64,000 nt of DNA from Paraspadella gotoi (Eukaryota; Animalia; Chaetognatha): positions 12,978,813 to 13,042,812 of the forward strand of contig CM119264.1 in the NCBI GenBank assembly GCA_051294375.1. Reading direction: 5' to 3'. Under the pieces are notes generated by a model that worked only from the letters and a program-made list of their open reading frames with translations, made no database searches and was not told where the DNA came from. A program made the translations under genes and the position numbers. Of the stretch, positions 1,483 through 54,559 are shown piece by piece (position 1 is the first letter of the stretch; every line of letters starts with the position of its first letter).

Positions 1483-1577
<95 letters not shown>

Positions 1578-2198: not shown

Positions 2199-2277
2199 TA
2201 TATTCTATTTTTACTCTCGACTCCCAATTCCGTTGATATCTCCATGATCCTCCCCGACTTCACCGCCCTCTACCCAC

Positions 2278-2466: not shown

Positions 2467-2523
<57 letters not shown>

Positions 2524-3998: not shown

Positions 3999-4076
<78 letters not shown>

Positions 4077-4313: not shown

Positions 4314-13163
<8,850 letters not shown>

Positions 13164-18099: not shown

Positions 18100-18748
18100 T
18101 CTCTTCCCAATTTTTCCCTCAGATCGCCAAACGCGGTCCATCTCCCTTCCTCGGCAAAAGATCATTTTCCGCCTCTCCTTTCCGGCCGCCGCCTCTCTCC
18201 TCGATGCCCCTCGTTCCGGCGTCGTCTCGCCTCCGCTCCCTCGACGGCGCCTACGCCGAGAAACGCGCCCCTCGGCCCAACTTTCTCGGCAAACGCGAAG
18301 CCCTTTCGGCGGCGTCTCCAGGCAAGCGGCGTCCGGCGTTTATCGGCAAGCGGTTCTTTCCGGACGACGCCGAGGTGATAGAAACCGGCGACGAGAACGG
18401 CGCCGCTCCGTGGAAACGGGCGGCGTCGCCGTCGTTTCTGGGAAAAAGAACGCCGCGACCTTCGTTTCTGGGAAAGCGCGGCGCTCGAGTTCCCGGCTTC
18501 ATGGGGAAAAGAGGTTGGAGAGATGAGGGGGAGGAAGAGGAAGAGTGGGAGTCGAAAGGTGAGTTTCAAAATAGTTGGGGGAGGATTGGTGAGGAAATTC
18601 GCTATATTTTTAAATATTCCGTATTCTAATTTATATTTCTAAAGGCAAAACTGACGAAGGAACCTTTCACGATGAACGGACCGATGGACAAATGAACGGA
18701 CGGCTTAATGGAGAAATGATCCAAGGAAATACGGACCGCCTCGCTTAA
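16768..18748 (+). CDS. Neuropeptide precursor encoding several PxF[L/I/M]-amide peptides; exons 16768-16849, 17250-17368, (17829-17929), 18123-18558, 18645-18748
   Basis: Signal peptide-like start MKVPASLFLLISLFRSGICS. KR-flanked units end in GKR: GPSPFL, APRPNFL, RPAFI, AASPSFL, TPRPSFL, GARVPGFM. Spacers are acidic, and an AATAAA lies near 18776. Confidence 0.9.
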
Positions 18749-23000: not shown

Positions 23001-23657
23001 CAATTAATAGTTGTTCTTTTTCATTTTGGATGAAATTATAAATTGGAGAGACTCCTGTGAAAGTGACGGCATGATGACAGGTCGTGACGCGTCTGTGTAA
23101 GAGGGAGAGACAAAAGTGAAACGCGTAAAAAAGTTTAATAAAGTTTTTTTTTAATACGTATTATTTTTTAATGAAAAAATTAACCTTATGGTAAAGACGT
23201 TCAAGAGCCGCAGCGTCGTTTCCGGAGATCTGCCAAAAAACATTGTCCGATTTATGATTTATGATTTTTTTTTCTTATTTTGAGACGCTTTCACCTCACT
23301 TTTATAAATTACTATTTTTCCCTTAATTTATCTCTGATTCTCTCTCTTTTTTCGTCGGAAACAATCACCGAGTCGGACGGATAAAACCACTTTGCTCGGA
23401 AGGTTTGCTTTGTTTTCTTTTTCCCCCTTGCTTTATTGCAATATCAAAAATGAAAAAAAAAATATTGGCTTCTACCTCGAGGCAAATAAGAGATTGCCTT
23501 CCGACGAGATGAGACATTTCTTGAAGTTCCTGTATCGGAGTTAAATGATTTACAAATAATTATTAAGCAAAGAAGTGAAGCGAATTAACGAGATCATATC
23601 CGAAACAGTTTCTTTTTGTCAAAGGTTAAAATATTGATTAACGACAAACTGATTTAC

Positions 23658-26414
23658 CTACTCAGTGACGCGATCAGTGTAGCGCTCATGCATCCACTTG
23701 CACTGTTTGTTAAACTACGAAAAAGAGAATAAAGATTAATTTAATTTATTTTATAGAATTAGTTATGAATCCTTTATATACCGGCCGGATATGGTCTCCG
23801 CCAACAGAGGAAAACAAAGGGGCAACGACATACGCCAAGTCTCGTGCGAGAGGGCGAGACTTAAACGATCACTGGCTTACGAGACGTGAAGGCATTTTTC
23901 AAACGGGATTTGTGCAAGAAAAGTCTATGATAATTTTTTTTAAAAATGCTGTTGTCCTTTCTGTCTTGTAAGCCAGTGCTGATGACATAGCACCTCTCAC
24001 ACAATCTCTCATGCCACTTAAGTGAAAAGCTCGGTACTCACGCTGATGGCTTGCCACATTTCGTGCTTTTCCCTCAAAAGCTGCGTTGCTCTTTTGTCCA
24101 ACCTCATGACTTCTTCGCCGATGCTTCGGATTTCACCTTGGTGCGTCAGTTTGTCCGTCTCGGCCGAAATCGTCCGGTTTTTTAGAGCCTGGTAACCTGA
24201 TAGTGGAAGGGAATCGAAATTGACTGCTAATGCATACCATACGAGAAGTATTTCATGTCAGCTGTCATTGCCAATAATAATAATAGCTTTACTGGTTGAT
24301 TATCGCAGAAGATACTTTTTAAGTGCCTAACGATCTGAGACAATCATCGATCGCTCACCTCCCAGTGCCTCGTCTCTTTTATTTTTCATTTCCGCCAAGA
24401 GATTTTCTTTCTCTTTCTTTTCCATCACCACATCTTCCTTCCACTTCTTCAACTCGGCCTGCAGACTTTTTCTTTCGTCCGCAATGTTTCTCTCCGCTTC
24501 CGACAGATGGGAGGCTGCGTCTGAGTTCAGAAACCGCAAAATTAACAAAAGGCGTTAAATTAAGTTAATTTCTATTATATTTAACAATTTACTTGCGTTC
24601 TCTCTCTCCATCGTTTTTATCATCGTTCTCACGTCGCCCGAAATTCTTTCTTGATCAGCGTAGAGAGTTTTCATATCTTCAAGTTTCTAAAAAAATATCT
24701 ATTTAACTTTTTCACCAGATTTTATCGTTATAAATTAGATGCAGTTGAAAATTGAACTGTCTTCCGGTATAAATTTAAATGAGTTCATGCGACAACAACA
24801 ACAACAACAACAACTTTCTTGGCGATTTTTCGATCAACAACGACAACAACAACAAGGAGGTCTTCCCGACCTTTTTCAAGTCTCTGTTCTTCGCCTCGAC
24901 TCTCCTCCGCTCCTCAACTTTAGCGTTGAGGAGCTCCTCAAGTTTGTGAATTCCTTCCGCGAGAAGTTTTCGTCTCTCCTCCTCCTCCTTCTTCTTTCTG
25001 ATCTTCGCCGATTCGCTCACAACCACCATGTAAAACTGATACCTGACAAATAATAAATACATTAATTAATTAATTAATTAATTAAGTAAATAGCTTTCCC
25101 TTTAAGTCAGACTAACCAGGGCCAGTTCTTGCACTTGTAGTAGTTCCTGATGTTGTTTTGTAGTGAGAAGAGAAGTTTCTTTTCTCGCCGCTTGAGGGCG
25201 TAAGTTGACTTGATAAGCACGTTTCTCGACGCCGCCTGCATCTTCAGAACGATGACGCTCAGCGCCGATTCGCGAATCTCTTCCAGATTGGATAGTTTTC
25301 CCGCGCGAAACATTATCTGTGAAGAATTATTAGGATAGACAAAACTTTATTACTAACTGAATCTAATGTGATTGTATGAAGTACCGTAGTTAATAATGAT
25401 ATATTATTGCAAAGCTGGTCCAAAAATCGAGAAACATTGTTTTGTATTGATAGTTTATTATAAATGCGTGTTCCTCTTCAGACGCGTTTACACTGAACAA
25501 TTGAACATGGCTTGTACTATTAGATACATTTGTAGATGATATAAGTCGGTAGTCACATCATAGCTAATCGGTTCGCGTCTCCCACTGTACTCTGTTATGT
25601 CCAACAGCAGATTCATACACTAAGCCTATGAACGTGAGCGTCGACTGCGTCGCCACGTTGAAGACCTCAGATGAAGCGCCGATCAGAAGGCGCCCACTAC
25701 CATCTCCCACTGGCGATTCGCAAGATTTATCCTCCCGACAATTAAAAATATATTTCAAAAGGATCACGTGATCGACACATAATCTAGGCTGTTCCGTTTT
25801 AATCATTTGTGATTTTTTCAAGATTTCGAGAAAGCGAGAAATTGGATATTTGATTCGCCAGACGATTCTTATCGCCGTCGGAAGATTCGACCCCAACTCG
25901 AAACATCACGGAGACGACGATGACGACGACGAAAAGATAAGAACGACGAAAACGAAGACGGGGGTCATGATGAGCCGGCAGAACTTTCTCCGGCCGTTTT
26001 TTTTTTCCAGTTGCAGATACAAGACTGTACAAGCTTGGTTTATTTTATTCAGAGTAAAGTTTAGCGTAAATCTATTTCAGTTTTTTTTTCTTAGTATTGA
26101 CAGTAGTGTTTGTTATTTAGAATTTTTTAGGGATGAATTAAATAAATTAAACGAAATCATTTTATTCGGTTTGATCTAAAAAAATAAAATATTTAACTCC
26201 CTTCCCCTGATCTCGTACTACAAATTGTTTTAAGCTGTTACACAATCGTTCCTTTCCTTCCTCGACTGAGAAAGGAATGTGGATCTCAATCGATTTTTTC
26301 CGCCATTTTTTTTTTCGTCTTTTTCGCTTCGAATGTCACGAAATCGACATCAAGAATGACAGAAAAAAAAATAGAGTCACAATAAGAGTGAATACAATTA
26401 AATTACTAGTAACA

Positions 26415-26506
<92 letters not shown>

Positions 26507-29481
26507 GAGAGGAGACCTCAACGTTCAACAACTAATAGCTTTAAAAGTAACCCAGAACGTTGAGCAGCCTCTTACCTTCGTGTGGCCGCATCTGAAATCG
26601 TCCACGTTCATTCCGACAGAGGGCAGCGCCTTTGTGGCGCAATTTTTTGGGTCGTCCTTCAAATCGGAGAAGATCTTCGGCGCAACGATGGAATATCTGG
26701 AGCAAAGTATGGAGGAGTATCGCCCAAAAATTAACTCTCCCTCCCCGACCCCAACCTGCTCATGAAATCCGCGTAGGGCACTTTGTTCGGCAGCCCCAGC
26801 ATGCATATGCGGATGCCCTCCAACACGCCGTTGCAGTTGAGTTGATGCATGACGAGCGGCGCCTCGATGAAGCCAGACTTCTTGATCTCGTTGGGGATGA
26901 TGCATCGCACGAAGTGAGGGTGAGTCGAGTTTAAGTTGGTCATCAATTTGTGGAGAGACTCACGATGCGCGGCCGAGATCGTCATCAGCGCTGGAGTGGG
27001 CGAGGGGAGTTGACATAAGTCAAGAGTTGATTATTTTTTTTAACCCCTCACAGGGACTGCTCACGTTTTATTGCGACTTCACTGAACCCGTTTCTGATAT
27101 TTCTTTTTCTTCGCAAACACCATATTCGTTTCGGCCTCCATGAACTCCCCATAATCCGGGGCCTTTCTCTCTTTTATTGACTCGATCTAAACTTGTCTCC
27201 CAATTCGACCTCACCCGATCCCAATTCGACCTCACCCGATCCCTTCTTCTTTTCTCCTCCGGCTTTTTCTTGGAAAACGAGAGAAACGATTGGATTCGTT
27301 GCCGCATGCATCATGTTGACGACGGCCTCGTTGACCGGATCCTGCGCGTAAACAGGGGATTTAGGCGGGGGGGGGGTCTAAGCTCTGTTTGTCTTATTGA
27401 GCTATACTCTCTGTCTCTCTTTAACTTTTCTTGTTCTGTTTTTTAAATGGCACAGTGGTTAAATAAAACACACATTTGATTCCCCGCTTTTCTCCCTTTC
27501 TCCATCAACCCCGGCACCTTGTTCTTGAACAGCCATCCCGTGACGTTGTAATTGACGATGCCCGCGTAGTGTCCGATCTGGAAATGCGCTTCGGGCGCCC
27601 CCTTCTTGGGTGGCTTCGGCTTCCCAAAGCACTCCGACTTTCCAAGATGCTTGTTCATCAGCTTCTCGAGGAAGGTCTTGTCCGAGGCTTTGGGCACGAT
27701 GCACTCTTCCTCCAGGATGGAGAGAACGCCCATTTTTTTCTCGATCAGTTCGATCGTCTTGACCTGGAACGAGATGAGAAGTTGTTGTTGTTGTTATTAT
27801 TGTTATTTTGTGGTTCAGTGTTTTTAATTTCGAGGTACCCGGCCCTGTTAAAAACGGGCCGCTGTATTTTTTTTTCTTGTTTAAATGTTGATTTTTTTTT
27901 AACCGAAGACAGAAAGTTAACCTCTATCGCTGTATAAACATAGAATAGATATTAAATAAATATTTAAAAAAATCATGAAGGTTTCCGACACGAGCCGTTG
28001 AAAACTTGATTCGATTTCGTTCCGATCTCAATAACAAATAAATTTTACAAGGCGTCACGCTTCGCAGAGTTATTAATCCATTACGCCATTAATCCATTCG
28101 CGTTTCATTCGCTCTGCATTTCGGGCCTCGAGATAAAGAGACAAACACGTACACGTACACGTACACGTAAGAGTCGGGAAAATGTGGAATTAGAAGAAAG
28201 CAGTTAATGGGACACGGAAGCGGGATTCTATGTTCAAATTTGTAAAATAAATAAATTGTTTTGAAACTTTAAATAAATGTTGCCATTTAATTTGTTCCGA
28301 GGATCTGTACCCACCAGATCGAGGCCAAAGTCGATGAAGTCCCATTGGATGCCTTCTCGCTTGTACTCCTCCTGCTCCTCCACGAACATGTGATGGTTGA
28401 AGAACTGCTGGAGCCGCTCGTTGGTGTAGTTGATGAGCAGCTGCTCCAGCACGTTGAGATCGAAAATTTCGAAACCTGAGAAAATAAAGGGGCTAAAACG
28501 AAATGAAACAACGAGCATGTAACTATCCAACCCACTATTCAAATAATTATCTTATTGTGGCGGTATATTCACACCGCCTCACGTCCACCATCGTTCAGCC
28601 AATAACATTGGCTCAGAGGGGGAACGCTCCATCCGAGGCGTTGCTTTCCATCCACAGTCATATAACGACTTCCCTCTGCGTTGGCAAAGCGAGACCTAGG
28701 GTAACCGCGCCAGTGACAGGAGGCGGAAGCCCCCAACACCAACGGTGAGATGCTCCATCCCAATTGGTATCACAGGCAACCCGAATATTGTCATATTATA
28801 ACTATTTTTTACAAGTTTCAAATTTAACTGAATAATTCATTAGCGATCAAAAGCAAAATAAAAAAAAAAGAACAAACGGACTCCCCCATTACCCGCGATA
28901 TCGAGCACGCCGATGAACGTCTTCCTCGGATTGGGCGTGTCCAGCGACGCGTTGACTTTGTTGACGATCCAATCGAAGAGACGCGCGAAGAGAGACTTGG
29001 ATGTCGCGGAGACGGAGAAGGAGACCTTGGAGTGGCGGACACGACATGCTGACATGGTTACTGAACTATGGACATGAATAATGAACGACTGAGACTCGCC
29101 TGATCCACATTCTGACCCTTTTTCACGAAATCGTTGCCGACTTTGAGTTTCGGCTTCATGAAAGTGTCGACGAAGACATCGGGGTCGACGCCCAAGAGAG
29201 ACGCGCAGTCAGTGACCTCGTCCATCCCGTCGGGTTCCGCCTTTGGAGGGTCGGGACGAGGCCGTTCGTAAAGAAAATGTAACTCGTTCCTCCTTTGAGG
29301 CTCTTACCTGTTCCTCCCGTCCCCTCTGCTTCCAATGGGCGTTGCCCAAATGAGCCACGGCGATGGTTCCCTTGTAGAGTCCATTCTTTTCGTCCTGAGA
29401 GAAACCCAAAGTGTCGAAGGCCTCGTCCGTCGCTCGCATCTCTTCCGCGTCGTCCATTCCTATGGAAGAGAGGTGGAGAGA

Positions 29482-29549
<68 letters not shown>

Positions 29550-32356
29550 AGGAGGAGAGAGCCAACCGAAAAAAACAAAAACAGTTCAAAAGATCAACAT
29601 TATTCCCCAACACATCAAATCTCAAACCAGAACTTACCAGCCACGGTCAACACTCCCTGACTGACGAAATAGTATTTTCCCGGATCGGGTTATTCCCCAA
29701 CCCGACACATAGGGTGATACTGAGGGTAAGCGTTCGTCATGATCTGATAGAAGATGTGATAATTTCGCTCGATCTCCATTTGGAAAGTGATGCGAGATTT
29801 CTCCAGTAGGTAAGTCTCGATGTCGGCCGAAGCGATTTTGAAACTGGGGCCGAAGTGAATGCGGATGAACTTGCCCTTTATTAAGGGATGGGAGGAGGAG
29901 GAGGCATTATTGAAGAGGATAAGAGTGGGAGAGAGAAGGGTGAAAAATATGATGATGTGGCGGTATATTCACACCGCCTCAAATCCACCAACGTTCAGTT
30001 CAGAGGGGAACACACCATCCTAAGTGTTGTGTTCCATCCACAGTCCTAACGACTTTCCTCTGCGTTGGCAAAGCAACCCGTCCTAGGGTAACCGCGACAG
30101 CGACTGGAGGAGTCACTGAGGGTCGGAAACCTCCAAAACCAACAGTGAGATGCCCCATCCCAATGGGCATCACAGGCAACCCGGCTGTTACCACAATGAA
30201 CTCATTACAGAATGAGATTCTTTCACTCGTAATTCTTTTAACATTTTCATCCTTCTCAACTGATGACTCAGAAATTCCTAGAACCACGAGCAAACAAAAA
30301 CAACATCGCTATGCTCACGAATCTGCTCGAGTTATTGTTCCTGACGGTCTTGGCGTTGCCGTATGCCTCCAGCGGGGGGTTGGCCTGAATTATCTGCTCC
30401 TCCAGGGATCGCTGAGTCTCCCCCTTAGACTTGGCGGCGTTGGGGTCGGCGCAGTTGAGCGCGTAGTACTGAAGGACCTTCTTCGTGTTCTCGGTCTTTC
30501 CGGCGCCGGATTCGCCGGTGATTAGGGAAGACTGGTTCTTGGATTCTGATCGAGGTGATGGCGATGGGGTGATGGAGAGAAGACCGAGAATGATGCAAAA
30601 AGATGAAAAATACATTTCGGAATTATTTAATGTTTTTTACGATTTTTTTTTCTGTATTTAGATGAGAAAAAAAAAAGAAATCAGCAACGAAAAAAAAGGA
30701 TTTAATACAATATTATACGTATTATAAATTGTAACTACTTACCCATTTCCATGAATTGCAATGCTCCGTCGGCAATGGCGTACAGATGAGGCGGCGCTTC
30801 GTTTCGTCTTCAGGGCAAAAACGACAAAACGAAAGAAATGAAAAGAGATGATTAAATGCTTACATGATTGTTTTTTAGATAAAAATAATAAAAGGAAAAG
30901 CATTTGTCGGAAAATTAATGTGATCGAAAAAGGATTCTTCACGATATTTTTTCTTCTATTTTTTCACCTTTTGTTTCTGTAGTAATTCCTCATGACTTGC
31001 GTGTACACGTTGAGCCATTTGTAAGGATTGATGCACACGCAGAAGAGGCCCGAATAGGTGTAAATGAGGAGGCATCGGTAGCGCGTGCGCAGATTGTGCA
31101 AAACGCAAGCGCGGTTTAAGACGGACAGATTTGACATGTCCTCTTCCTGAAAAACGATAGGAGTGCCGTTTTGAATTGCCGGTTTGTTTTTGTTTGTTAT
31201 GTTTTGTTGATGCCGACGGTTTTAACGAGTTTTGGTTTTTCTTATGAATTATTCGATAACGCGACGGCGAAAACGGTCGGCGCCATCGAGAACATTTTAT
31301 CTTTTGTCTTTTGTCTTTTGAGGAGCGAGCAAGCAAAATCATCTTTTTAAGGAGTGAAAATCAAGGCCTTGTTTTCTTTCTAAGTTGACACTGAATAATT
31401 ACATATTCTAGTTAATCTTTTACCTTGTAACGCTAGTTAGTATTCACATTATTAATATGTTTCTTTTTATCACATATAATTACCACGATTGTCGTCTACT
31501 CATTACTCGACCTTTTCAAACTTTGGCGGGTTTTGCTCCCACACTTTGTCACCCGGCAGTGTAAGGGCGCCGCCTTTGTCAGTTTCCACGGAGACTTTGT
31601 CGCCATCTTTCTTGACGATTTTGGCTTTGATGTAAACTTCCTCGGGGTCCTCTACCCAGCAAGCGGTCTGAAGAGGAGGAAGGGAAAGAAAAGAAGGAAA
31701 TGAGTGGAGGAAAGAAAATAAGAAATTAATATGGATTGATTTGAACTGGGAGATAAGAAATGAGATGGAATGATGGAAGTTAAAATTAGATGAAGAGGAG
31801 AACAAGGATTTGAAGAAAAAGGGAAAAAAAGGTCGCAAGGAAAGAAGTGGAGTGGGAAAGACTAATGGAAATGTAGAGGAGAAACAAAAGAACTCGAGGG
31901 AGGGAATCGAGAAAAAGTCACTAGAAAAAAAAAAAGAAACTCTTAACGATTTGTCTCTGCGTTTAATGGTTCGGAAATCCGAGGGAAAATCGAGAACCCT
32001 TAACCCGAATCTTTGGCTTCTGTCGTAAAGAATCAATAATTGAGGGTCGTCGACCGAACTTACCTTGTCGTTTGAGGGTGGGGTAAGAGGTCAAAAATGA
32101 TTAACAAATCAAAATTGGGTCCATTTTAAGGTTTTCATTGTCAAATATTCGTCAACTTTGGTCACTAAATCAACTGGTGGAATTTGAGTTTGGAATGAAA
32201 CATCAATGAAGTGTCAGGGAGAGTGCAACTTGCCTTGGCGTCAAAAGGAGCGGACCTTTCCTTTAGAAGTTCATTCATGGGGGTTTGCAGCCAGCACCAA
32301 TCGGGATGGTTGGGCGTAAGGCGCTCCGCCTCTCCGGGTTTCAACACGTGGGCCAT
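23658..32356 (-). CDS. Muscle-type myosin II heavy chain with complete SH3-like, motor and IQ regions but a short coiled-coil tail (stop at 23658, or at about 23004-23040 if three further small exons are used)
   Basis: Exons encode [24 protein letters not shown]-loop [13 protein letters not shown], switch I NNNSSRFGKFI, switch [35 protein letters not shown] and NWPW, followed by heptad-rich exons. Confidence 0.9.
25438..25740 (-). mobile_element. Possible degenerate solo LTR in a myosin intron
   Basis: Minus strand TGTCGGGAGG ... CTGAAGAGG ... AATAAA ... CAAAACA. TG...CA ends are present but no TSD was found. Confidence 0.35.
28556..28795 (+). mobile_element. 240-bp structured repeat, copy A (solo-LTR-like), TSD TTAT
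   Basis: ttat|TGTGGCGGTATATTCACACCGCC...GGCAACCCGAATATTGTCATA|ttat; homologous to 29956-30195 and 48511-48760. Confidence 0.8.
29956..30195 (+). mobile_element. 240-bp structured repeat, copy B (solo-LTR-like), TGTGG...CCACA termini, TSD ATGA
   Basis: atga|TGTGGCGG...GTTACCACA|atga. Confidence 0.85.
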
Positions 32357-33818
32357 CTGATGAAATAAAAACAAGTTTTTATACTAAAAAAAAGTGGAGG
32401 GAAATTTGTGGAACTTCCATCCCATTTGTTCAAACCGTAAACGTTTTTAAAATTTGTATATTTATGGCCTTTTTTTATTTCAATACTGAAAAAACAAATT
32501 GGCGACATCAGAAGAACAGTTTTCATTTTTTTTTTTTCGTTGATGTCGAATATATTGTAAACCAATATTATGGTTTCCGCAATAATTTCTGCATTAATTA
32601 TTATACAAATTAAGTGCGATATAGCAATAATTACAAGGGAGCATTGATTTTTCAAAATTTAATAAGATCAAAATTCGAACCATTAAAAAATACATTATAC
32701 ACGGTTGGTAATGAATTATAAAACGCTTGAATGTTTAAACTGCCTTATTTTTTTTCAAAATATGTTTAATAAAATAATATTTTTTTTAATATTTTATATT
32801 TCTCTTTCTCCAATACAACGTTCATTTTAAACCTTCGAATTACTCTCGTTCAGACAGTATACACCTTTATTTTCTACGGATAAAAGAAAATAACATAAAT
32901 CATAAATTATTTGCATTAATTAATTAATGGACTCACCCTCGTCGATGGTTTATTCAATGGGTTCGACTCGGAGTTCCGTTCTTTTCTTCTTTCATCCCCT
33001 GAAGGAAAACCGAAGCGGCCTCCGATTTTATACTTTCTCTCGCGCCTCTTTCTTTTTTTTTCTTCTTTTTTCTCTTCTTAATCCCTATTCAGTATTCATA
33101 TTCTCTCCTCTTTTTTTTCTTCATCCCTCAACCTCTTCCACCATCAGCTTCCAATCTTTTTCCTCGTCTTCATCTCCGCCCCCCCCTTCGTCCTTCGTCC
33201 GACCGACTCGATCGAGACCGACTCAATCCATTCTCTCCCGAAATCACGGATTTTCTCGGGCCGCCCCTTTCTTTTTCTTTCAATTCACTACGAGTTCGAA
33301 TCAAGGAAACTGGGGAATTTTACCCACGAAATCTCGGCCAAGCGTATGCGTAATGTTCTCGTCTTCGTGGTCGTCGTAGTCGTCGATGTCATCTTTATTA
33401 TTTCTTTTTTTATTCCTGTGGTATTTTCTCTTCGTCGCTGTTTTCATTAGTGTCAGTTATCTTGTCATTGGAAATGTAAATAGTTAACCTTCTCTAGCTT
33501 TTTTCGTTTTGTTTAGCGAAAATAAAATGGTCTGGTATTTTCAAAGAAGTACATATTATTCAATAATTTAACAATCTGCTATCTCTCTGTGGTTGGCAAG
33601 ATATACAGGAAGCTCATTCCCTGAATAAACAAGCAATGCGAAATTTGCTTTTAAATAGCCATTTCTCTTTTTCCTGTCTCCCTCTTTCGCTGACCCCATG
33701 AAAAAAAGAAATAAACTAAAAATAAAATATAAAACTAAAAAAAGGAAAACATTTAAGAAAATATAGAAGTCAAAACGCTGCTGATAATGAAAGGAAAATT
33801 TGAGACGCGATGAAAGAG

Positions 33819-34730: not shown

Positions 34731-35141
34731 ATATCTCTCTAATTTTTCTGAGAGTTCGATCGCGTTGCCCGATTTCATGCGACTGAAAGTCAGAGAAGAT
34801 AACAAAATTAACAATACGCTGCCGACGACGACGACGAAAACAACGACGACAGAGAAAAGAAAAAGGAAGCATTTGCGTCACAATCTTCTCCGAGAATCGC
34901 GAGGGATTCACGGCGTTATCTGTGATTGCATCGCCTTCCTCCCTTTGTGATTCTTATTCATTTTTCGCGCGGATTGTTCACTCCGCTTTGGATTACAGGT
35001 CATTGAGATTCATTAGAGATGAAATACATTAACTACATGAAATACGTGAAATACATTACATGAAATACATTAAAACAAACGTTATTAATCGTTTCATTAC
35101 GTGAATATCTTTTATTGTTGTTTCGTCGTCAGTTTTTCGTC

Positions 35142-35895
35142 ATGGATTCCAGCGTCGCGGAAGAAAAATCGAGGCGACCAAGCAAAGCGGGGGAGCAGGT
35201 GAAGTTTCACGACGGGGAGAGGGAAAGGAGAGAGAGGAGGTGAGTCAAAAAGTGAAGGTGAGGACAAAACTGGAGAGAGGGAGAGGTGAGAGAGGAGGTG
35301 AGTCAAAAAGTGAAGGTGAGGACAAACCTGGAGAGGTGAGAGAGTGGAGGAGAGGGGAGGTGCTACATATGATGGAGGTATTGCTACTAATGGTACAGTC
35401 GCACTGAGAGAAAGGTTAAAACGAGGGGAAACGAGAAGGCTTTGGGGAAACCACAAAACTGATTAGGCAAATTAAGGGAAGACAAAGATTCGCCCGAAAA
35501 TTTAATTTGAAGAAGTTAAGTGAGTAGAAGATGCCAATTATGCAAAGTAAAAAGATCTTTCTCTATTTACTTAAAATTTTTACATCTTTTTATAGTTTAT
35601 ACTTGATACTTCATGGCTTCAATAATATTTCATAGGGTGTTAATTAGTCTGCAAAAAATTTAAGAAATTAGATTCTAAACGCAGCAAATGAAATCCTCCA
35701 CAATATTATGAAATGCTGAACAGAAAACAATGAGCAGCATTTTGCGGAAAATATTGGTTCTCCGCTTGATTTAATTTAATTGGTTTAATTTCTCCTAATT
35801 TTAAAAAGAAAAATTTAGTTGAATCGATTTTCTTCATCTCAAAATCGATTTTTATCTCTTCTTCGGACGCCACGACCTAGAAGGAGATCGCGTGT

Positions 35896-35988
<93 letters not shown>

Positions 35989-38735
35989 GACATGCCTCTA
36001 GTCGTTTCAAATTAATACCCATCCCTCCCTCACCCACTTCCCTGCTACTCTTTTCCCACACCCGCAACAAGGTCAGCAAGAAAAATTCCTCCAACGGCAA
36101 ACTCACCCTCTACGTGGGAAACCGCACCTTTTTTGATTATGGTGGAAAAGGTCACATCATCGACGGGATCGTGGGCGTGGATGCCACTTTCCTGCAGCCC
36201 AACCAACGCGTCTTCGTTCAGATCTTGGCCGCGTTCAAGTACGGGCGCGAAGACAGGGACGTCTTGGGCATCAACTTTCAAAAGGATCTCTTTCTTTCTG
36301 TTTCTCAGGTTCTTAACTTTGCCGTGATTGTGAAACGTAATTTTGTTCTAGCGGTCGTTCATGACGTTCTGTGACATTGGGGTGTTTCAAAACTGTCTCG
36401 ATCCTCGATCCCAGATTTATCCCCCTCACGATACCGGAGAGGATCACCAACATACTCACTTACAAGATCGAATTCTTAAACGACTCAAAGGACGCGCTTA
36501 CCCGTTTTGGTTCGAGCTGCCGAGCAGGTGAGGTCGAACCTGTGATTTAATTCAAAGTCTTTACTACAATTGCTTAATATAATATTTTTTTTTTTTTAAG
36601 TTTCGCGTCTATTGAAAAAAAAGGCTCACAATCAACGCAGTTTACCATAGAACTGTGACACTAAACTAAAGTTTATATCAAATTATGATAAAGATAACAA
36701 AGATATTTGTTTTTGATGCAACAACGATTTTATTTAATAGAAACATACATGCTTGGACTCTGTTTCGAGTCTTCATCACCGCTTTTGAAGCGTTAATCAA
36801 AAAACACAACGAAACAAATGTTCGAATGATACAGATACAATTTTTACATTTACAGCAAAATGACAACAGAAAAATAATAAATAATAAATAATAATAATAA
36901 TATAATCTCATTCACCCTTCTGTGTTTGACTCTCAACCATCTCTCCCTCTCCCCCCCCTGTCTCTTTCTTTTTCGACTCCCTCTCCTGCAGCGCCCCGGC
37001 CTCGGTGACGGTGCAGCCGGCCGACGGAGACGACGTGGAGGAGGAAGAGGAGCTGCCCTGCGGCGTCGAGTACGAGTTGCGCGTCTTCGCTGCGGAGTCG
37101 GAAGGCGCCAAAGCGTTGAGGGGTGCGTCGGTGGCGATTCAGATCAGGTGGGTTTGGGGAGATTTGGTGGGGGGGACTTTTGTTTTGTGTTTAGACGGAT
37201 CTGCTTATCGCAGATTCCGACTCTATAATCCACTTTGTCGGTCCGTCGGTTCACCCCCACAATCTTTTGTGCAGATAAAATCGTGAAAGTGGAAATGAGT
37301 TTAAATGAAAAAAAAGAAGTAATATTTACTTGAATTTGTATAATTATATTTCCTCATAATTATGCTAATTATTTATTGAGTTTAAATAAAAAAACAATGG
37401 TCACGTTTATAAATTTGAATTATTTTTAATTTTTAAAGTTGCTTTCTCTCTCTCTCTCAGTAAAAATGATTGATTGGCTGATTGATCAGTTGACTGATTA
37501 TTGATTTACCGCTAAATTATCATGGGCAGATCCGAGATTGCTCAAACTTGTTTTTTTCCTGTTTTTGTTTTGGTCCGTTGAAAATAAATATTTTCAGTAA
37601 GATATCAATATCAATGATATTTAAAGAAAAAAGTTGTCAACGCCATATCCTCGCCCTTCCCAATCAACCCCCCCCAGACGTTTTGCCGCCGTCTGGCCCT
37701 TACCTCCGTTGCCGACGGAACCAATTGCTGTCAACGAGTCCTTCAATTTTTTGATGAGTGACGGGGCGCTCAAAACCACCGCCTTTTTGGACAAGGAGGT
37801 TGGTCGGTCGGTCGGTCATTTTTCCGATCGGCCCCTTTTGCATGTTGCTCATTAGGTTTCTCTGCATGATGGTCGATCGATCTGTCGGGTTTCTTTGTCG
37901 GCAGTTCTGTCTACCCTCTTGTCCATTTGTCTTACCTGTCTGTTTCTCCGTCTATCTGTCTTCCCATCCCTTTCCCCGTTTCCCCGTTTCACTCTCAAGG
38001 TCTACGTCCACGGGGAACCAATCCAAGTCTCCGTCAAACTCGACAATGAGTCGACCAAGTCCGTCCGCGGGGTCGAGATCGCCGTGGTGCAGTTGGCCGA
38101 GATCTCCCTCAACGAGACCGTCGTCTACAAGCGGAACGTGGAGACCAAATGCTCCGTCGAGGGATTCCCGCTGGAGCCCGGGGAGAAGATCGAGCAGTCC
38201 TACGAGATCAAACCCGTCGTCAAGGACATGCAAGGTTTCTTGGGCTCTCGTAATTGGATTAAGAAAGATATCGATGGATCTATCTATCTATCTATCTATC
38301 TATTTATTTATTTATTCATCCACCAATTGCCATGATATTTTTCAAAACACAACGAAGTGACAAAACCTCGACACATTCCTCAACTCCCCTATCCCGCTAC
38401 CCTTTAACCCCCCCCCCCAGGTCTGGCCATCGACGGACGCATGAAAAAGGATAAAACGAATCTGGCTTCGTCGACGATCACGACGAACGTGTTGGGAAGT
38501 AGAGAGAATATGGGCATCGTCGTATCTTACCAGGTCCTTTTGTTCAGGAGATCATTTTGACGATTGGGAGTTTCATTTTCAGAAACGCAAAATGTGATTG
38601 ATTGATAAAAGATGAGTGAGAGGGATTCGTGTTCACTTTTGATGTCTCCTCCAGGTGAAAGTGAAGATGGTGATGTCGATGGCTGCAAACGTCACCGTCG
38701 ATCTTCCCTTCGCTCTGACTCACGTCGTCGACTAA
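35142..38735 (+). CDS. Arrestin (beta/visual arrestin clade) without a C-terminal tail
   Basis: Exons encode VSKKNSSNGKLTLYVG, AAFKYGREDRDVLGINFQKDL, APASVTVQP, PCGVEYELRVF, LDKEVYVHGEPI, GLAIDG...TNLASST, RENMGIVVSYQVKVKM and VDLPFALTHVVD* (TAA at 38733-38735). The first exon 35142-35198 is inferred from splice phase. Confidence 0.9.
37190..37270 (+). mobile_element. Helentron/DINE-like (HINE) end fragment; inverted copy at about 45295-45375
   Basis: TTAGACGGATCTGCTTATCGCAGATTCCGACTCTATAATCCACTTTGTCGGTCCGTCGG: a palindrome plus a GTCC/GTCG microsatellite, repeated in reverse at 45295-45375. Confidence 0.55.
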
Positions 38736-39713
38736 GGACGAAAATGACGCAAAAGAAGTTTCGAAGATGTTAACGATTTATTGATCTCAATATAACCGAA
38801 GTAAAAAAAAAACAAAAACAAAAAAAAACAAAACAAAAAACAGACGTCAAGTTACGTCACCAAACATGCATTACGATTCCAATATTTGCATATTTTGTGC
38901 GCGTCATTGGTCTTTGTTGCTCACAATGACTCTAAAGATTACACTCTACACGTGAAATGAACAAGAAATGCTCTACTTCATGCATATTTAATTTACATTA
39001 GGGCAACCTATTATTTAATTGAATGAACTGTAAGAAAATATGAAAAAAATATGAGGCGTTTTTAGCTGTTCTTGGTTGGAGGGGAAAATACCAATCAATA
39101 TTAGAATTTATTCATCGACCCGTGAAAAAAAAAAAACGCCGGCCAATTCTAAAAATTTCGAAACAAATTCGTTTCCCCAACGGAAGACTTGGAGACTGTT
39201 TAGAACGCCGTAAGTCGATCGCGGCTGACGAATATCCGATTAAGGTGTCAGTGTTTATCACTGGGTGGCGCCGTGAGAATGATGAATTTTGACCGAAAAA
39301 AAAAGGAAAGAAAAAATGGGGGGGAAAAATAGAAAGAAAAAAAAAACGAGGTCGCTCTACTCGATTATGCGAGGACACGAGTACTGAGTCAGTCAATGAG
39401 CCAGTTAATGAGTAAGTCAATCATTAAGTCTGTCCGGTCGTCCAAGCTCTCCGCACGTCTCCATCAGAAATTCTCAGAGGAAATTAGTTCGGGAACGCCT
39501 TCCTCATCCTCTGATTTGTTTCTGTCAACAACAGGAATCTTTCTTGATCTCGATAATTGATTTTTATCACGTGGGTGGAGTCTTGGGATCGGGGAAAACC
39601 TCGAGGGGGAAAAAATGATTCATAATTCGCTTCGTAACCGAATGGAATTTTATTATTCGGTGGAGTATTAGACAAATGAACGCAGTGGGAAAGAAAAATA
39701 ACGTGTCAGTGAG

Positions 39714-39818: not shown

Positions 39819-41539
39819 CGCAGAGAGTGGTGCAGAATAAGACGTTGACCTTAAATGAGAGATGCTTAAAAAATTACACTTAAATAATTTTTTTTTTATT
39901 CAAAATATCGAAAACTAAAAGAAGTTGGTGCATCAATTTTTGCTGAAGCTTTTTACTTAATTTATTTAAAAGTCTGTAGAAAATTCAAAATATAAAATTT
40001 TGAATATAAATACAATTTTTAAACGATAGCTCATTTTTAGCGACTGATTTAAATGCTTCGCCATGTAATGGCAAAGATGGATCTTCGAAGAGAGCGAACA
40101 AACTTCGTTTTCGTTTTCATTAATTTTGTCGAGGATGTGACTAGCGTATAGGGTCCTAGGAATAAACAATCTTTTTAGAAATAGCTTTGTTTTGATTGAT
40201 TTGTTTGTGTTATTATATTGTATTTAGACACAAATTTTCTTTATTCGCACAGCAGTGAAAAAGCGCATTTTGAAAATAAAAATTACAATCAAAAATCGTT
40301 AAAAAACGTTAAGAATAAATGCATAATTAAATATGGAATAATATTTGTAGTATGTCACCCGGTACTTCACGTCTCTCGACTTTTTCACCGTCCATTTTTC
40401 CTTTCCTCATTTTTCGCTCATTTTTGCGACGTTAATTTACTTAGTTTTTTTTCACAAACTTTCCTCTTCTTTCCTCCATTTTCTCGGCCACACTTTTCTC
40501 GTCTCATGTTTTTTCTCCGAATTTACCTCCTTTATTTCTTTTTTTTTTGGATTTCTTTTGCATCTGCCGTTTTTAAGGAAATTGCTTCTTATTTTTTTGC
40601 TCCTGATTTTTGCAATTTTATTTCGATGACATTTACGGCCTTTGGCTTTGCTTTCGAGGTAAAATCTGGTTTTTGTTTTTTTTTGGTTTTTTTTTTCATT
40701 TTAAAATTTGTTGTCGGTGACTTGATTTCGATAAATTTATTTTATTGCATCCACATTGCCAGTCTCTCTCTCTATCTTTCTCTCATTCTCGCTGTCTTTC
40801 TCTTTCTCTCGCTCACTTTTTTCCTATCCCTCTCACGTTTTTTTCAATATCTCTTCAACTCTTATCTCTGAAACCACTTCCGGTACCAAGTGCTCCCGTC
40901 GTCGTCGTCGTCGTCATGGTCGTTTTTTCTAGGGTTTTGCATCACGGGTTCAGTGAGGCATAAATGAGGAGATGAGACATACTCATTACCCAGGGGTCTC
41001 TTTTTTTGAGTCGGCAGAGAACTGCTTGAAAAGATTAAATAATACATAAAAACTAGCTTAGACTAAGTCATTTATTTTACATACTTAATTATTACAATCC
41101 GTAAGATTGCGTCGATTAGTTTATCATGCAAAAAATATTGAATAATAATATTTTTTTAAAGAGTAATCGCTAATCGGCTTTATTGTAGAACGGGAGGGCG
41201 TTAAAATAAACAAACGACAACAATGTCAACACGACGAGTGATATTAGGATGACGATGACGACGCCGACGCCCTAAAGGCCGACGACGATATGATATATCT
41301 TCCATTCTGCCGCCAGGTCGTTTATTTCGCCAATAGCAAGCGTTTGCCGGGCAAATCTCCCAAAAAAGTTTTAGTGAACCCATTGAATTACCTCTTCGGA
41401 GCAAAATAGCTTTTCATATCTTAGTCTAATAAAAAAAAAAATAATTTTTTTTTGGTCTCAGATCGTATTTAAAATTTTACTACATCTGGGTAAGATACTT
41501 TATTAGCTTAAAAAGAAATATTAAAAGCTAAACGAAACG

Positions 41540-43075
41540 ATGACTCCGTTGGCATCGTCCCTTCGCCTACAAATCGTCCTGGTCTTCGTATCTGCCGTCG
41601 TCGCTTCATACGTCGACGCCTCCTACTCCAGACTTCCCGCGTTCGTCGGGAGGACGAACGATGACGAATTCATAGGTTTGTTCCTTTGTTCCTTTGCCCT
41701 ATTTAGTTAAATGGAGAGCCTCTCTGTTCGGGTAATTTGATTGTCTATAAGCATGTCCCCTTCAGTCGTGACCGCTTGGTCGTTGAGTATTACGACCAGG
41801 ACATGACCAATAGGTATCGGGATCGAAGCCGCACTGTAACTACCCTACGTGAGCACGGCCGTGAACGGTCTTGGTGGCCTGGAAATCCTTCCAGTTCCAG
41901 TTCCAAGTTCACAGCCGTTTCTTGGCTCACTTACCCCCCCTGTCCGTCCTTCTTTGTTTTGTAATAATGTTTGTATCCAAAGTTTTTTTGGTTTATTAAT
42001 TATTATTATATCCACCGCCTTACAGAAGAAAAACGATGCAGCGGTCCTACTTGTCAGTGGATGCCCGGAGAGATGTTTAAGGTGAGGTCTTTCAATCCTT
42101 TGTTCCACCACTAAAGTAGCGTAGTTATCAATGAACCCATTTCTCGATAAATTTAAAACAATTGTTATGTTCATAAATTTTCAGAATTTTCTGTTTTCTC
42201 TTTAATTTTATTTGTTTCACTTTCCCAAAGCGACGGGGAATCAACGACGGGAGAACGACGTCGAGAATCATGGATCAAATCAGAAGAATGCAGATGGAGT
42301 CGGCAATGAAGGCGCAAGGGATGCAACGTCGAGCTCACGGGGTAAGTCGAGTTAAGTTGTATGTTATGGCAACGGGGGGACATGTGTGATGCCTGGGGTG
42401 TGAGGCATCTCCCGACAGCTGGAGCTTTGCACCTGCAGTGACCACCCCATGTCACTGGCGTGTTTATGTCGACACCATCACTCTTTAACCAGAGTGACCG
42501 TGAGGGGATTGAACCCGGAACTCACGGTTGGTGAACGAGTACTGAGCTGTCCAGTGTCCAAGCCAATGTGCCCTTAATTTCATGGAAGGTTTGATTAGCA
42601 ATATAATTTTCACGGGACAATTATTTAATTTAAAAATGTTAATGATCGACTCCCCCTTGGTCAGCTGCTGGACAATCTCCTCCGCCCTCCGCCTCATTTC
42701 AGCCTAAGATTCGCCGAGGATCTCCTCGACGCCATCCGCTCTTCCAGCCGCCGCCGCCGCAGCGCAGGTCTGTTTTTAGAGATGCAGATGGCAGATTGAG
42801 CGATGAACATCTGTTGAAACTCTAATACCGATCAGTAAAAATTTCATATCCCGTAAATTATTTTTCATATTTCAGAAGAAGCAGAGACGGAAGCCGATGT
42901 CAATGACGTCGTCGTTGGACCGACGGATTTGAATTCTCGCGCCGTCGCCGGTTTAGAAATGACGCCGCCGATCGTTGCAGAGTTGCTGCATCGCCGACGA
43001 ATTCATGGCCAACAGGAGAGAGTGCAGCAACATATGCAGCAGAGATTCCAGCCGCAGATTCCTGGTGAAATGTAG
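41540..43075 (+). CDS. Secreted prohormone/neuropeptide-like precursor, 201 aa; exons 41540-41675, 42026-42081, 42231-42341, 42665-42767, 42876-43075
   Basis: All five exons join in frame at GT-AG sites: MTPLASSLRLQIVLVFVSAVVASYVDA/SYSRLPAFVGR...EEKR-CSGPTCQWMPGEMF-KRR...RRRRSA...QPQIPGEM*. Confidence 0.8.
42362..42573 (-). mobile_element. tRNA-derived SINE-like element
   Basis: Minus strand starts GGGCACATTGGCTTGG (A-box-like) and contains GGGTTCAATCCC (B box). Its 3' half shares the CCAGTGAC..GTCACTG and GAGATGCC..GGCATCACA hairpins with the 240-bp repeat family. Confidence 0.7.
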
Positions 43076-43639
43076 AGACATTTGGAGACGGTGAAAATAA
43101 ATGCGGAGCGGATTTTTTTTTTTTTTTCCAATTTCCATTTAAATTTAATTTAATTTAATGCTTTGATTTCTATTTACAAGACTAATTCACTGATTAACGA
43201 TTGCGGAAATGCGATACTTTATATTTCATATACCGCGGAAAGAAGGAACATTCTACCAACTTGCAATTACATCGAATTGTCTTTTTGTACAAACGTTTAA
43301 ACTGCAATTTTTATTTCAGTCTTCCATTGATTACTCATAAAATTATCTGTGTTGTGTCAAGACTGAGAACTCTCTACTCATAACAAAATATCTATAAAAT
43401 CGTTTATTTAAAATAAAGGCATAAAACTGACGAAACAGTCTAAAAATCTTTTTTATCCGACTAAAAGCATAAAAATATCAGAAAGAACCATGTTTAAACT
43501 CAAGTCAGAATAAAAAAATGGAGGATCGAGAGATTTCGTTTTTATTCGACTCATGAAAAGCATCAATACCGAATTTTAAAAAACCTTTTTTTATTTTCTT
43601 AGAGTTTTGTTTAGCACTAATAAAAGAATAGCACGGAAG

Positions 43640-46600
43640 ATGAATCAGGTACAAGTGATTTACATTATTATTCATCAATGTTGGCTATACAGGCGGGGAA
43701 ATCCAGCCTTATTTTAACAAACTTTGATCAACTTTTTAAAAGTTAAAAAGGCTCAAGAAAAATGGTTTAATTTACTTTTTTTATCTTTCCCATTAAATTC
43801 TAGGAGAAGATAGAAATTGCTCAAGTTAAAATTGTGAAACCGAGACGAAGTCAATCGGAAAGCGACAGAACAAGTGTGGGATCTGTGAGTTGTGGGCAAA
43901 AAATGAAATAATTACAAAAGAAACAAGTCTTTTGTTTTTGTTTTTTGTTTTTTAGATAATATCGGATACTGAAAAGAAAAAGGATTTCGCTACGAATTAT
44001 CTAATTCAAAGTCCCGATGAAGTAAGTCAGTTTATAATAGATAATAAGATAAAAACATAATAACATAACATATATACATGAAATACATTTTATGTAATTG
44101 AAACATTCTTATAAATATAATACATCTTCATTGATAGGGAAGCCTTTTGTCTCTTGATTGAAAGCTTGAAGGATCCTTCTATGTCATAATCTTGTAAAAT
44201 TGATGGAAGCTTTTAACCACCATATCCTGTCCTAAGTCAGGGGCAAAATAGCTAATTTATGAAATGAATAATTTTATATTGTACCGTTCCATAACATAAC
44301 ATTATAACAACATAATAGCGAGAAAATACAACCGCAGTACCCTGCAAGCATTCAATGAAAACTTTCACCCAGTCTAGTTTATTAAATTCCAGAGCAAATT
44401 GCTTCCCTTTCTGTAAGGACATAAGAAAAAAAATGTGAACTTGATTTTGGAGATTTAAAAACAAATAAGAGAAAAAAATGATTAATTTCGCAATATTTTA
44501 TTCTAAGTGGAGCAATAAAGAAAACGAAGATGAAAGCGAGGAAGCTTTTGAAAATGAGGTCAACTGATAAAATATTTTTATACTTACAAGGTAACACACC
44601 GCAACCCGCCGCTAAAAAAAAATCGTCATTGTAAACCTTTGAAGATTTATTTAATCTGAAATATTTTTTTTGTAGTAACAAGTTTGAGCAAACAATGTCG
44701 GATCTGCCCACGATCATTATCGGTATCAGTCAATCAATCAAAACAAACACTTCGGATCACAGTAATTAATTGCCTAATTAATTAATAATTAATATATTCA
44801 AATTAATTATTTAAATAATTAAACAATTTTATCCAAAATGTTTGTTTTCATTGATTTGTTGATTAATTAACTGATTAATTAATTATTTGATTAATTAATA
44901 TATCTTGCATTTACATTTAAAATAATAAGCATAATCAATTAGTGAAACAGGTTCTTTGTTTTTTCTATTTAAACTTATTTCCACTCAAATGATTCCATCG
45001 AAACTTGATTTCCAGTTTAATCACACTTTTCTACCCAAATAAAAAATTTCAATTCATTAATCATGAGTAATTGGTGTTCAATTCGATTCCATCGAAACTT
45101 CATATCCAGCTCAATCACACACTTCCCTACCCACACACAAAATTTCATTCCAATCCATCCATCCAATCACGAGAAATTGGTATTTTTTGCTAATGTGAGA
45201 CAGACGAACGGACGGACAGAAACGGACAAACATTTTTTTTTTTGCATAATTTATTATAATTTGATGTTCTGACATGATATAAGTGAATGCCCGACAAGAT
45301 TGAGGGGGCGAACCGACAGACCGACAAAGTGAATTATAGAGTCGGAATCTGCTGATAAGCAGATCTGACTTAAAACCAAAATTATTTATATATCCAAATT
45401 TTATATTGATTGGTTTTTGATTCGACTTGGCTATAAGTGGAGAAAAGTTGCATTTTGTTGTTTTTTTTTTCATTAATTTTTTTTAATGAAATTAGAATGT
45501 ATAAATGATTTTGGTTATTACTACAAAAAAACTTTCAGATTAAAAAAAATATTTAAAGGTTTGTAAATAACGACTTTTTTCTAGCGGCGGGTTGCGGTGT
45601 GTCACCTTGTATAATGAAGATAAGGAAGTCACACACCAATACAATTGCTATTTCCACCCAGGAATTTCGGCCATCCGTATCGTATTCCGTTTCTGTGAAA
45701 CCGGATGAGGAAAAGATATCTAAATCTCATTCTCAAGATTCTGTGAGTTTTATTTTCTGTCCAAGGATAACAAAATGAATGCCTTTATTTTGAAACCATT
45801 TTCCCGTCAGATCTCTATTCTCAATGACGATGTTCGGAAAAGATGGCGCTCCGAAGATTTGGGGAAAAATAACGAGCCATCAGCTGAAAATGCGCTTAGA
45901 CGGCCCACGTGAGAATTGGGAAAATAGAAAAAAAAAAAACAAAGAATCATAATGGAAAAAAAAAGAAAAAAAAGAAAAAAAAGAAAAAAAGAAAAAAAAG
46001 GAAAAAAAAAGAAGGGGGGAAAAGGGAAAAGAAGGGTAAGAGAAGAGAAGAGAAAAGAAAAAATTAAAAATAAATAAGTAATTCAAAGGAATTAAAAGTA
46101 ATATTGATTTTCCCAGAGAGTACCATAACTTCTCCCTCAATACCATCAAACAATCCCTCTCCGATCTCCGCTTGGCGGCGTCGGGTATTTACGACCGAAT
46201 CTGGCACTACCATGACGAGTTGCCTGCTTGGCGCCGAGACAACAGCTTCATCGTGGCGAGACACCGACCATGCACCTACTCCATCGTCGAGTGCTTCAAA
46301 AGCGTATTCAGGTAAGTTTATTATCAATTAGTCGTGATTTGAGATTTTGAAATTACTTTTATGTGACTTTAGCTGGCACAACGAAACCATGAACATTTGG
46401 ACTCACCTATTGGGGTTCCTTGGAGTCGTCGCTTACATCATCCACCGAAACTTGAGCGAAAGCGATAAAATCTACGTTTCCCAGTATGTTTTTCTTCTCT
46501 ATTTTTGACTAACGTTTAGCCGAAACATGTCCGTTTTTTATTAAAAATAAAATCGTTGTTGAAAATTCATTTCAAACTTTTCTAATTATTACACAACGAA

Positions 46601-47856
46601 AAGAAAGGATTATTATACCACAATGACTAAAATCTCGAAAACTAGCGAATAAAAATAGTAGAAAAATAATTTGAATTTTCAGTGACGAAGAAAGGATCCT
46701 TCTCGCGCATGAAATATGCAGCGCACTATGTCTGCTGTTCTCTTGCGTCTTTCATATTTTGGAATGTCACTCACCGGAAATTCATTCGGTGAATATCAAA
46801 TAATTCTTACTCGGTCAATAGCCATAGCCGATGAAATTTAAATGCTAATGTATACAGCGTTAAAATAATCTCTCATGAGCATAGATTATGGTATTAAAAA
46901 TACTATATATAAATAAATATTAAAAAATTAATTACTAGGGTATAGAGCCATATAAGAAATTTTGTCCATTGCAAGTATACTTAAAAATGTATAAATTTTC
47001 GTTTGAGCTGTAAATATTTGACTCGCCTCATTGAGTGCGGCTACCTATATCAGTATTTCTACAACGATCTTACCCAGATCTTCTGTCGCCTGGACCACGT
47101 GGGCATCGCCCTTCTTATCTGGTCCTCGAAAATGGCGCTGATTCAAACGACGTCTATCGGACGCGATCCTGGCTACAATTTGCAACTGCAGGCATGGGGA
47201 AGCGTCACTGCGATGGCTTCAGTTTTGTTGCAGGTCTATTGTTTTTATTTCCAACCATTTGTATTTTTTCTAAAAAAAGAAATTATGATCTATGTCAGGC
47301 GTCAGGACTCTTTTCCTCGCCGGCCGCTCGAGCCCTGCGCACGCTATGGTTCATCTCCACGTCGACGGTGTGGGTAGCAATTCCGGTCCACGATCTAGTC
47401 TCACGCCTCGGCCTCGACGTCGCCCTCAACGTCGCAAAGCTGGACATCTATTTCGCTTCGCTTTTTTCAATCACCAGTAAAAATCGATCGGGTGGGATCT
47501 CGTGAATTCTCTACATTGGATAATAAATGCCGAGTTTTTTTGTTTCGAATCCAATGCATAGTTTGTTCGTTGACACTAATTACACTTATCCTGATCCACT
47601 ATTATTATAACTTCTTTGACCACACCTCCCCTCGGCAGCTGGAGCGATCATCTACGTGTCTCGCATCCCGGAAAGGTTCGCCCCCGGTTACTGCGACCTT
47701 TATCTCCAGGGCCACAACATTCTTCACATTTGCGTCGTAATCACAATCGCCCTGCAACTCTACGGACTGCAGTTGGGGGTCGAGTCGAGGGCCAAATTCG
47801 CCGTCGACTCTGGGCTGAGGTTCTCCGGCATGCCAGGTTATGTTGGATACGATTGA
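43640..47856 (+). CDS. PAQR / adiponectin receptor-like (hemolysin III family) 7TM protein
   Basis: Motifs LPAWRRDNSFI, WHNETMNIWTH, SCVFHILECHS, CRLDHVGIALLI and SRIPERFAPGYCD...GHNILHICVV. The small upstream exons from ATG 43640 join in frame. Confidence 0.88.
44587..45609. mobile_element. About 1-kb non-autonomous DNA transposon (MITE-like, TA TSD) in a PAQR intron
   Basis: ta|CAAGGTAACACACCGCAACCCGCCGCTA ... TAGCGGCGGGTTGCGGTGTGTCACCTTG|ta. Imperfect TIRs run about 100 bp, and HINE-like sequence is nested inside. Confidence 0.8.
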
Positions 47857-54008: not shown

Positions 54009-54559
54009 CGGCGAGAACCCAGAGGCGTGGCGAAGAAGGATAAAGCGAGACGGAAGTGAAAGAACAGCCCAATTTTCATTTAAATCGGTAATTTTTCTTA
54101 AACTTAAATTCGTTGGCCTTTTGGTGTGACCACCGAGGCTGAACATGGGCGTAAAGAAACGTTTTCCAAATCCAGCGCTCATGGTACAGAAAAGGAGGTA
54201 AAGTTATCTTGACAGCTGTATCGGAAAATTCAGGAGTGGACAACAAACTTAAAGTTAGAGGCAAATAATATCTGTAAACGGGCTAATATTCGATAAGAAC
54301 CATACAAACAAAACAAAGCCACCCACCAATTTCTTTTTCGAATAAAAACGTGACACGGCTGTCATAAATATAAAGTTCAGATACATAATCGTTAAAAGTG
54401 TGAAAGTTCGATCTTAAAGTTAAACCGGTTTAAAAACCTCTGAGTTGTAAAGGTGGCGCGGCAATACTAAACAAAAGGTAAAAGGATTTTAACAAAATTA
54501 GAGCTCAAATTAAAACAAAAGACGGGAAAAGGGGAGAATCAAAAGTTTTAAGTCACTTT

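Follow-up and report, generated by a model that had tools for sequence, protein, structure and literature searches.

A tail-less visual/beta-type arrestin with changed tail-partner residues and an acidic middle loop, encoded in the genome of the chaetognath Paraspadella gotoi

Pre-activated arrestins have usually been made by truncation or by mutation of the polar core, in which the arginine of the arrestin tail has its acidic partners in D26 and D297. The p44 form of bovine arrestin-1, a splice isoform of a tailed gene, ends just past the C-domain, as do engineered truncated arrestins, and it keeps D30, D303 and F13. A carp cone-arrestin study, going by its title, reportedly describes phosphorylation-independent suppression. 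Deletion of the tail raises arrestin binding to unphosphorylated receptors, and on mutagenesis R169-D290 was called the central bridge (PMC7913897). In arrestin-1, replacing Asp303 (equivalent to D297) by Ala or Arg strongly increased binding to unphosphorylated rhodopsin with stability not lost, and changes of Asp296 (equivalent to D290) had larger effects than those of Asp303 (PMC12733242). The premise of the original prediction on this locus, that tail and polar core hold arrestins inactive, is supported by the tail-deletion and Asp303 mutants (PMC7913897, PMC12733242).

Natural loss of the arrestin tail is already known. It is documented at the genomic level, with loss of exon 16, for teleost ARR3 (ARR3a/b) and ghost-shark SAG (PMC5501109); the tail of Arr3a is not addressed in the available part of PMC11803233. 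Drosophila Arr1 is without clathrin and AP-2 motifs, an absence that it shares with the arrestin described here, yet it mediates phosphorylation-dependent rhodopsin endocytosis (PMC9740569). The squid visual arrestin has an unconventional polar core and a weakly fixed tail and binds unphosphorylated rhodopsin (PMC11173308, PMC9740569). Our arrestin is likened to it by that description, the sequence comparison being a PDB match of 6bk9 to exon 2; the squid protein has a long tail. What is new here is that complete tail loss coincides with altered partner residues and with a middle loop that is acidic. No natural arrestin with such a residue set was found in the literature searched, which did not extend to subscription papers or to the supplements of bioRxiv papers and of PMC5501109.

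The gene lies on the plus strand of a 64,000-nucleotide stretch of contig CM119264.1 (GCA_051294375.1), hereafter the window. It has eight coding exons separated by seven introns, all of them GT-AG, and an open frame of 370 amino acids that closes at the TAA in 38733-38735, three residues past the His that closes the C-domain. One spliced contig of 1,362 nt from run X1 (listed as 'RNA?'; contigs only) follows the arrestin exons on the plus strand. Its seven listed pieces agree with the exons with no differing letters and no gaps, three of its joints are listed as GT..AG, and two unlisted contig gaps of 67 and 112 letters have the sizes predicted for exons 1 and 3. This transcript evidence is one contig from one run of one study, and contigs drop rare variants.

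All features are on the plus strand. The 5' untranslated exon (34833..34998) is represented by the contig piece 34833-34995, with a donor GT at 34999; its start is the first base of the contig and not a mapped transcription start. Coding exon 1 (35133..35198, length from the 67-letter gap) carries the ATG at 35142 and a 19-residue N-terminal arm whose last residue is a Gln at the R7 position. Exon 2 (36072..36308) contains beta-strand I, R25 and the finger loop and matches beta-arrestin PDB entries at E 7e-20; within it, beta-strand I has V8, K10 and K11 but Ser in place of F9 (36075-36077), and Thr replaces D26 (36126-36128). Exon 3 (36415..36527, length from the 112-letter gap) encodes helix I with L100, I104 and L108. 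Exon 4 (36992..37147) encodes the middle loop and the strand leading toward R169, whose codon is split by intron 4. The hinge and the start of the C-domain follow in exon 5 (37678..37798). Exon 6 (38000..38234) continues the C-domain, with Glu for K232 (38075-38077), Val for R236 (38087-38089) and K250 kept. The gate loop is in exon 7 (38421..38533), where D290 (38432-38434) and K294 are kept and Lys stands for D297 (38453-38455). The coding part of exon 8 (38655..38735) comprises the last two C-domain strands, three further residues and the TAA. Intron 2 (36308/36415) sits at position 85c, a hotspot with five independent intron gains in deuterostome arrestins (PMC5501109). Intron 1, at 7c, is one base off the vertebrate 7b, and it appears to hold a direct repeat of about 60 bases (35199-35370). 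Very deep contig cover at 37190-37280 and 44680-44990 likely reflects copies of a small repeat element.

By its sequence marks the product is a true arrestin of the visual/beta family. The best full-length BLAST matches reach E values down to 1e-83 with about 39-41% identity over 350+ residues, exons 2 and 7 have PDB matches, and the finger loop, helix I, the beta-strand I lysines and the gate loop are all present. In Pfam, exon 2 alone was recognised among seven exon pieces (Arrestin_N, E 0.011, below the cut-off). Alpha-arrestins (ARRDC) carry a PPxY tail and lack the helix I and the finger loop that mark the visual/beta type; here both elements are present and PPxY is absent from the 370-residue model, and this assignment was rejected. 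The two-domain sequence, finger loop, helix I, gate loop and R169-D290 are shared with beta-arrestins (ARRB1/ARRB2, Kurtz, ARR0), and the best trees place the protein among sponge and flatworm beta-arrestins. It differs from beta-arrestins in lacking the tail, clathrin box, AP2 motif and R393, in the changes D26T, D297K, F9S, K232E and R236V, in the acidic middle loop, and in having 12 of 18 basic positions where they have 17-18.

In a tree of 27 sequences this arrestin has the longest branch (2.07; median 0.61) and falls outside the arthropod and vertebrate visual clades, branching at an open fork together with beta-arrestins of flatworms and sponges; the arthropod visual clade excluded it in both trees that were built. 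AU tests (21 sequences, quick tree, LG+G4) rejected grouping with the Arr1 pair (p-AU 0.001) and with vertebrate visual arrestins (p-AU 0.01). They did not reject a position as sister to all arthropod visual arrestins (p-AU 0.129), in a panel without mollusc, annelid or flatworm visual arrestins, or grouping with arthropod beta-arrestins (p-AU 0.066). No ortholog was found. None of 22 candidates was significant when exon 2 was compared with longer proteins, and a representative search (417 matches at E<=0.001) listed no protein of 340+ residues with more than 58% over that part of exon 2 which matched. The best 120 of 1281 profile-search matches were mostly vertebrate beta-arrestin-2, with no ortholog among those listed; a metagenome scan gave two loci, both ordinary Kurtz-like genes, and the ESM Atlas queried with exon 6 returned no usable match. 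Arrestin is not mentioned in three supplementary files of PMC12460157 or the main text of PMC10952353, two chaetognath papers.

The absence of the tail, proposed originally from the genomic letters, holds at the mRNA level: the spliced contig runs through the TAA into the 3' UTR (38736..38795), where a second in-frame stop lies four codons on, and extends to 38795. Because the final 14 letters of the contig lie in a masked repeat, they do not fix the poly(A) site. With no differing letters across the TAA, an assembly or annotation error at the stop is rejected, as is a pseudogene in view of the open frame, the splicing and the GC3. The clathrin box, the AP2 motif and the R393 equivalent, all predicted to be lacking, are indeed absent from the mRNA, and the test for an endocytic beta-arrestin accordingly found neither of the first two. 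The protein is truncated before strand XX, which is a p44-type trait, and its tail of 3 residues compares with 19 in the shortest of 144 motif-matched arrestins. Codon composition suggests that the stop is old, because GC3 is high right up to it (0.72 for the coding region, 0.73 for the last exon) and only 5 of 19 codons after it end in G or C.

A downstream tail exon was also sought. A script scan of 38600-64000 (plus strand, three frames) found no match to clathrin-box or FEDF-like motifs, tblastn with tail queries gave only low-complexity noise downstream of the stop, and in the X1 contig no splice joint leaves the last exon, which contains no consensus donor. Of the two refuting conditions set originally, a spliced tail exon downstream and reads without the TAA, neither has thus come about. 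The results also bear on the idea that the tail-less mRNA, like p44 among the products of SAG, would be just one isoform, with a tailed form arising through readthrough or from a different 3' exon. A rare form could have escaped a single contig from a single run, and an in-frame F-E-D lies at 38760-38768, nine codons past the stop (shuffle p=0.016 in frame and 0.044 in any frame, noticed after the fact); as a sign of a tail relic it is a possible but weak one. Against this stand the lack of a donor or outgoing joint and of any tail-like exon within 25 kb downstream, the need for readthrough to pass first the TAA and then a TGA, and the absence of D26, D297 and F9 on which a tail could dock. 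A tailed isoform is very improbable indeed.

The replacements F9S, D26T and D297K were confirmed, all three sites lying in ungapped register with solved beta-arrestin-1 (HMMER). Two of the three polar-core acids are thus lost, one with reversal of charge. To call the polar core dismantled, as was done originally, is right for D26, D297 and R393, which are gone, but not for R169 and D290, which are kept. Since two of the five core residues (D26, R169, D290, D297, R393) remain, a canonical arrestin becomes less likely, while descent is unaffected. Of the three-element interaction with strand XX the helix side is kept, but the tail is absent in the mRNA and position 9 is Ser. The multiple alignment retains V8, K10, K11, R25, D29, L100, L108, R169, an Arg at 170, D290 and K294; in helix I only L104 is changed, to Ile, the finger loop is recognisable and position 107 is still basic.

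For comparison we used a panel of 21 arrestins below 75% identity, taken from 149 full-length sequences among 284. Position 9 is Phe or Tyr in 20 of them and Val in one, position 26 is Asp or Glu in all 21, and position 297 is Asp in 16 and never Lys, in a panel that includes a partial rodent model (10-residue tail, Ala297) and a snake isoform without the gate loop. Motif matches among the 284 gave Ser at 9 in 0 of 201, an acid at 26 in 228 of 228 and Lys at 297 in 0 of 149 (8 of these 149 being mis-hits), although this set is heavily redundant, consists mostly of vertebrate beta-arrestin-2, and its divergent members escape the motifs.

Less secure is the claim that tail and partner residues were lost in a matched fashion. 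Of the nine clasp residues taken from PMC11173308, 3 are changed non-conservatively, whereas in the remaining conserved columns this holds for 17 of 146 (p=0.093 by Fisher's test and 0.077 by the binomial). The total of 20 in 155 conserved columns is like that of the most divergent panel members (18-20). The clasp pattern is suggestive, because D26 and D297 are the very acids that pair with the tail arginine, but it does not go beyond what appears to be the background divergence of this protein. Such a background would be expected by those who regard the gene as a redundant duplicate under relaxed selection, which lost its tail first and let the partners drift, and whose product may be a poor scaffold or in the course of being lost. 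The tree's longest branch agrees with this, and fast-evolving duplicates are documented, as in sea-urchin ARR0.1 (PMC5501109). The open frame, canonical splicing, expression and GC3 high to the stop speak against it, as do the intact finger and gate loops and the 22 most conserved columns, with just two changes, both conservative. We regard relaxed selection as quite improbable.

The middle loop has changed as well. It carries an acidic stretch (37023..37052, plus strand) in which 8 of 10 residues are Asp or Glu and K138 is lost, and it is 13 residues long, compared with 8 in 149 of 150 motif matches. The segment has a charge of -9, against 0 to -3 in nine comparators. The N-domain carries a net charge of -4; eight comparators range from +1 to +6, and a spider eye arrestin has -5. 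At 18 phosphate or inositol positions 12 residues are basic, whereas six beta-type sequences have 17-18 and visual-type sequences 11-15; judged by these counts, the loss of basic residues is visual-arrestin-like and unlike beta-arrestins. R7, K107 and K138 are taken by us to be phosphate contacts. In the C-domain phosphoinositide site (positions 232, 236, 250, 324 and 326; PMC5501109) three of five residues are kept, the exceptions being K232E and R236V.

Two further readings turn on this loop. According to one, autoinhibition has been re-wired: the acidic loop would fold on the basic groove of the N-domain in place of the lost acidic tail, so that the protein would still be gated until receptor phosphates or an active receptor open it. 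The length and charge of the loop fit this, as do the retained core phosphate-sensor residues and the role of the 139/middle loop of arrestin-1, which keeps the basal state stable and governs when the tail is released (PMC8621391). The loop also contacts the receptor, however, so its acids could bind basic receptor loops instead, and one arrestin, P0082, which the loop motif misses, has a milder Glu-rich insertion in the same place together with a tail; we consider re-wiring unlikely. According to the other, the protein would be an active-state arrestin with the tail deleted, the polar core rebuilt on the new Lys and its sole remaining control moved to the acidic loop as an inbuilt phosphomimetic. 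This is unlikely, but if true it would mean that arrestins can also be gated differently, and the protein would offer a natural template for stable phosphorylation-independent arrestins.

The reading that we prefer, with about an even chance of being right, is that the gene encodes a p44-like pre-activated quencher in a gene of its own, with a low need for receptor phosphates and probably no recruitment of clathrin or AP2 through the usual motifs. As in p44, pre-activation is predicted; in this case, however, it is the gene that seems to have no tail, and the residues that would partner it have changed. The quencher would block G-protein coupling of activated receptors. With no tail there would be no three-element clasp, and position 9 would be free to turn polar; D26T and D297K would take away acids that have no partner once R393 is lost, and the Lys beside R169 would weaken the remaining R169-D290 bridge. 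With the clasp lost and the bridge weakened, the protein would be expected to visit the twisted active state and to insert its finger loop into an active receptor. Loss of R7, K138, R161 and R165 would lower the contribution of receptor phosphates, and that of K232 and R236 would abolish a large part of the phosphoinositide site. The likeliest partner, if visual arrestins are a guide, would be a dedicated receptor such as an opsin.

In favour of the p44-like quencher are the mRNA-level stop and its apparent age, Ser9, Thr26 and Lys297, each without a counterpart in the comparison, the visual-like count of basic residues, and the literature on tail deletion and Asp303. Against it count the retained R169-D290, K10, K11, R25, K294 and basic 107, the larger effects of Asp296 than of Asp303 changes, the enrichment short of significance, the precedent of fly Arr1 and the failure of the searches to find an ortholog. 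The original step from tail-less to phosphorylation-independent and non-endocytic does not follow, since fly Arr1 is a counterexample (PMC9740569); R169-D290 and K10/K11 are also intact. The same precedent, and the retention of K10, K11, R25, K294 and R169-D290, could be taken to mean that the chaetognath protein is tail-less yet phosphorylation-dependent, and possibly endocytic through non-canonical partners. But the Arr1-type sequences P0075 and P0274, with tails of 38-40 residues, keep F9, D26 and D297, and all five clupeid arr3b sequences keep Y9, D26 and D297, unlike the arrestin here; with the rejection of the Arr1 grouping in the AU test, this makes an Arr1-like mode rather unlikely.

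Several other genes were seen in the window. On the minus strand, 23650-32360 encodes a muscle-type myosin II heavy chain, which appears to stop after about 1,040 residues and to have no more than a short coiled coil; its stop near 23660 adjoins a possible splice donor. It is collinear end to end with P0298 (1,041 aa), many relatives have 1,030-1,070 aa, and it is possibly a member of a conserved short-tailed family. The best of the matches listed are 'merc' and JGI proteins, presumably from marine plankton, at 85-90% on one exon, and a rotifer is represented among those listed at 73%. A short-tailed myosin II is not described in the available part of PMC3912159. On the plus strand, 18250-18560 is an exon of a neuropeptide precursor with repeated P-x-F-(L/I/M)-G-K-R, like the precursors of PxFVamide or Mytilus inhibitory peptides, and a search by peptide name gave no relevant match. 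Positions 1-11600 (plus strand) hold an LDL-receptor-related gene with an NPxY-like tail and near-duplicate parts (exons near 1240-1840 and 7850-8420, together with the stretches at about 490-1150 and 7110-7730), which are due either to tandem duplication or to an assembly artefact. Downstream of the arrestin, a spliced 981-nt X1 contig marks a small gene at 41479-43391 (plus strand), whose product has a probable signal peptide and may be the precursor of a secreted peptide. From their translations, ORF pieces at 46985-47740 (plus strand) look to us like a PAQR-type membrane protein, and those at 52150-54200 (minus strand) like a 4-coumarate-CoA-ligase/luciferase-like enzyme.

The arrestin is real, an uncommon natural form within a familiar family, and the function proposed for it is plausible. 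The natural tail-short arrestins compared here keep the residues on which the tail docks, whereas in this one the tail is lost and its partners are changed. With it one could test whether an arrestin can select active receptors without a tail and polar core, and what K10 and K11 do with no tail to displace. It would also probe the binding of unphosphorylated opsins by invertebrate arrestins, a question left open in the available part of a review (PMC11173308). If stable, the protein may serve as a template for phosphorylation-independent arrestins in structural work on GPCRs.
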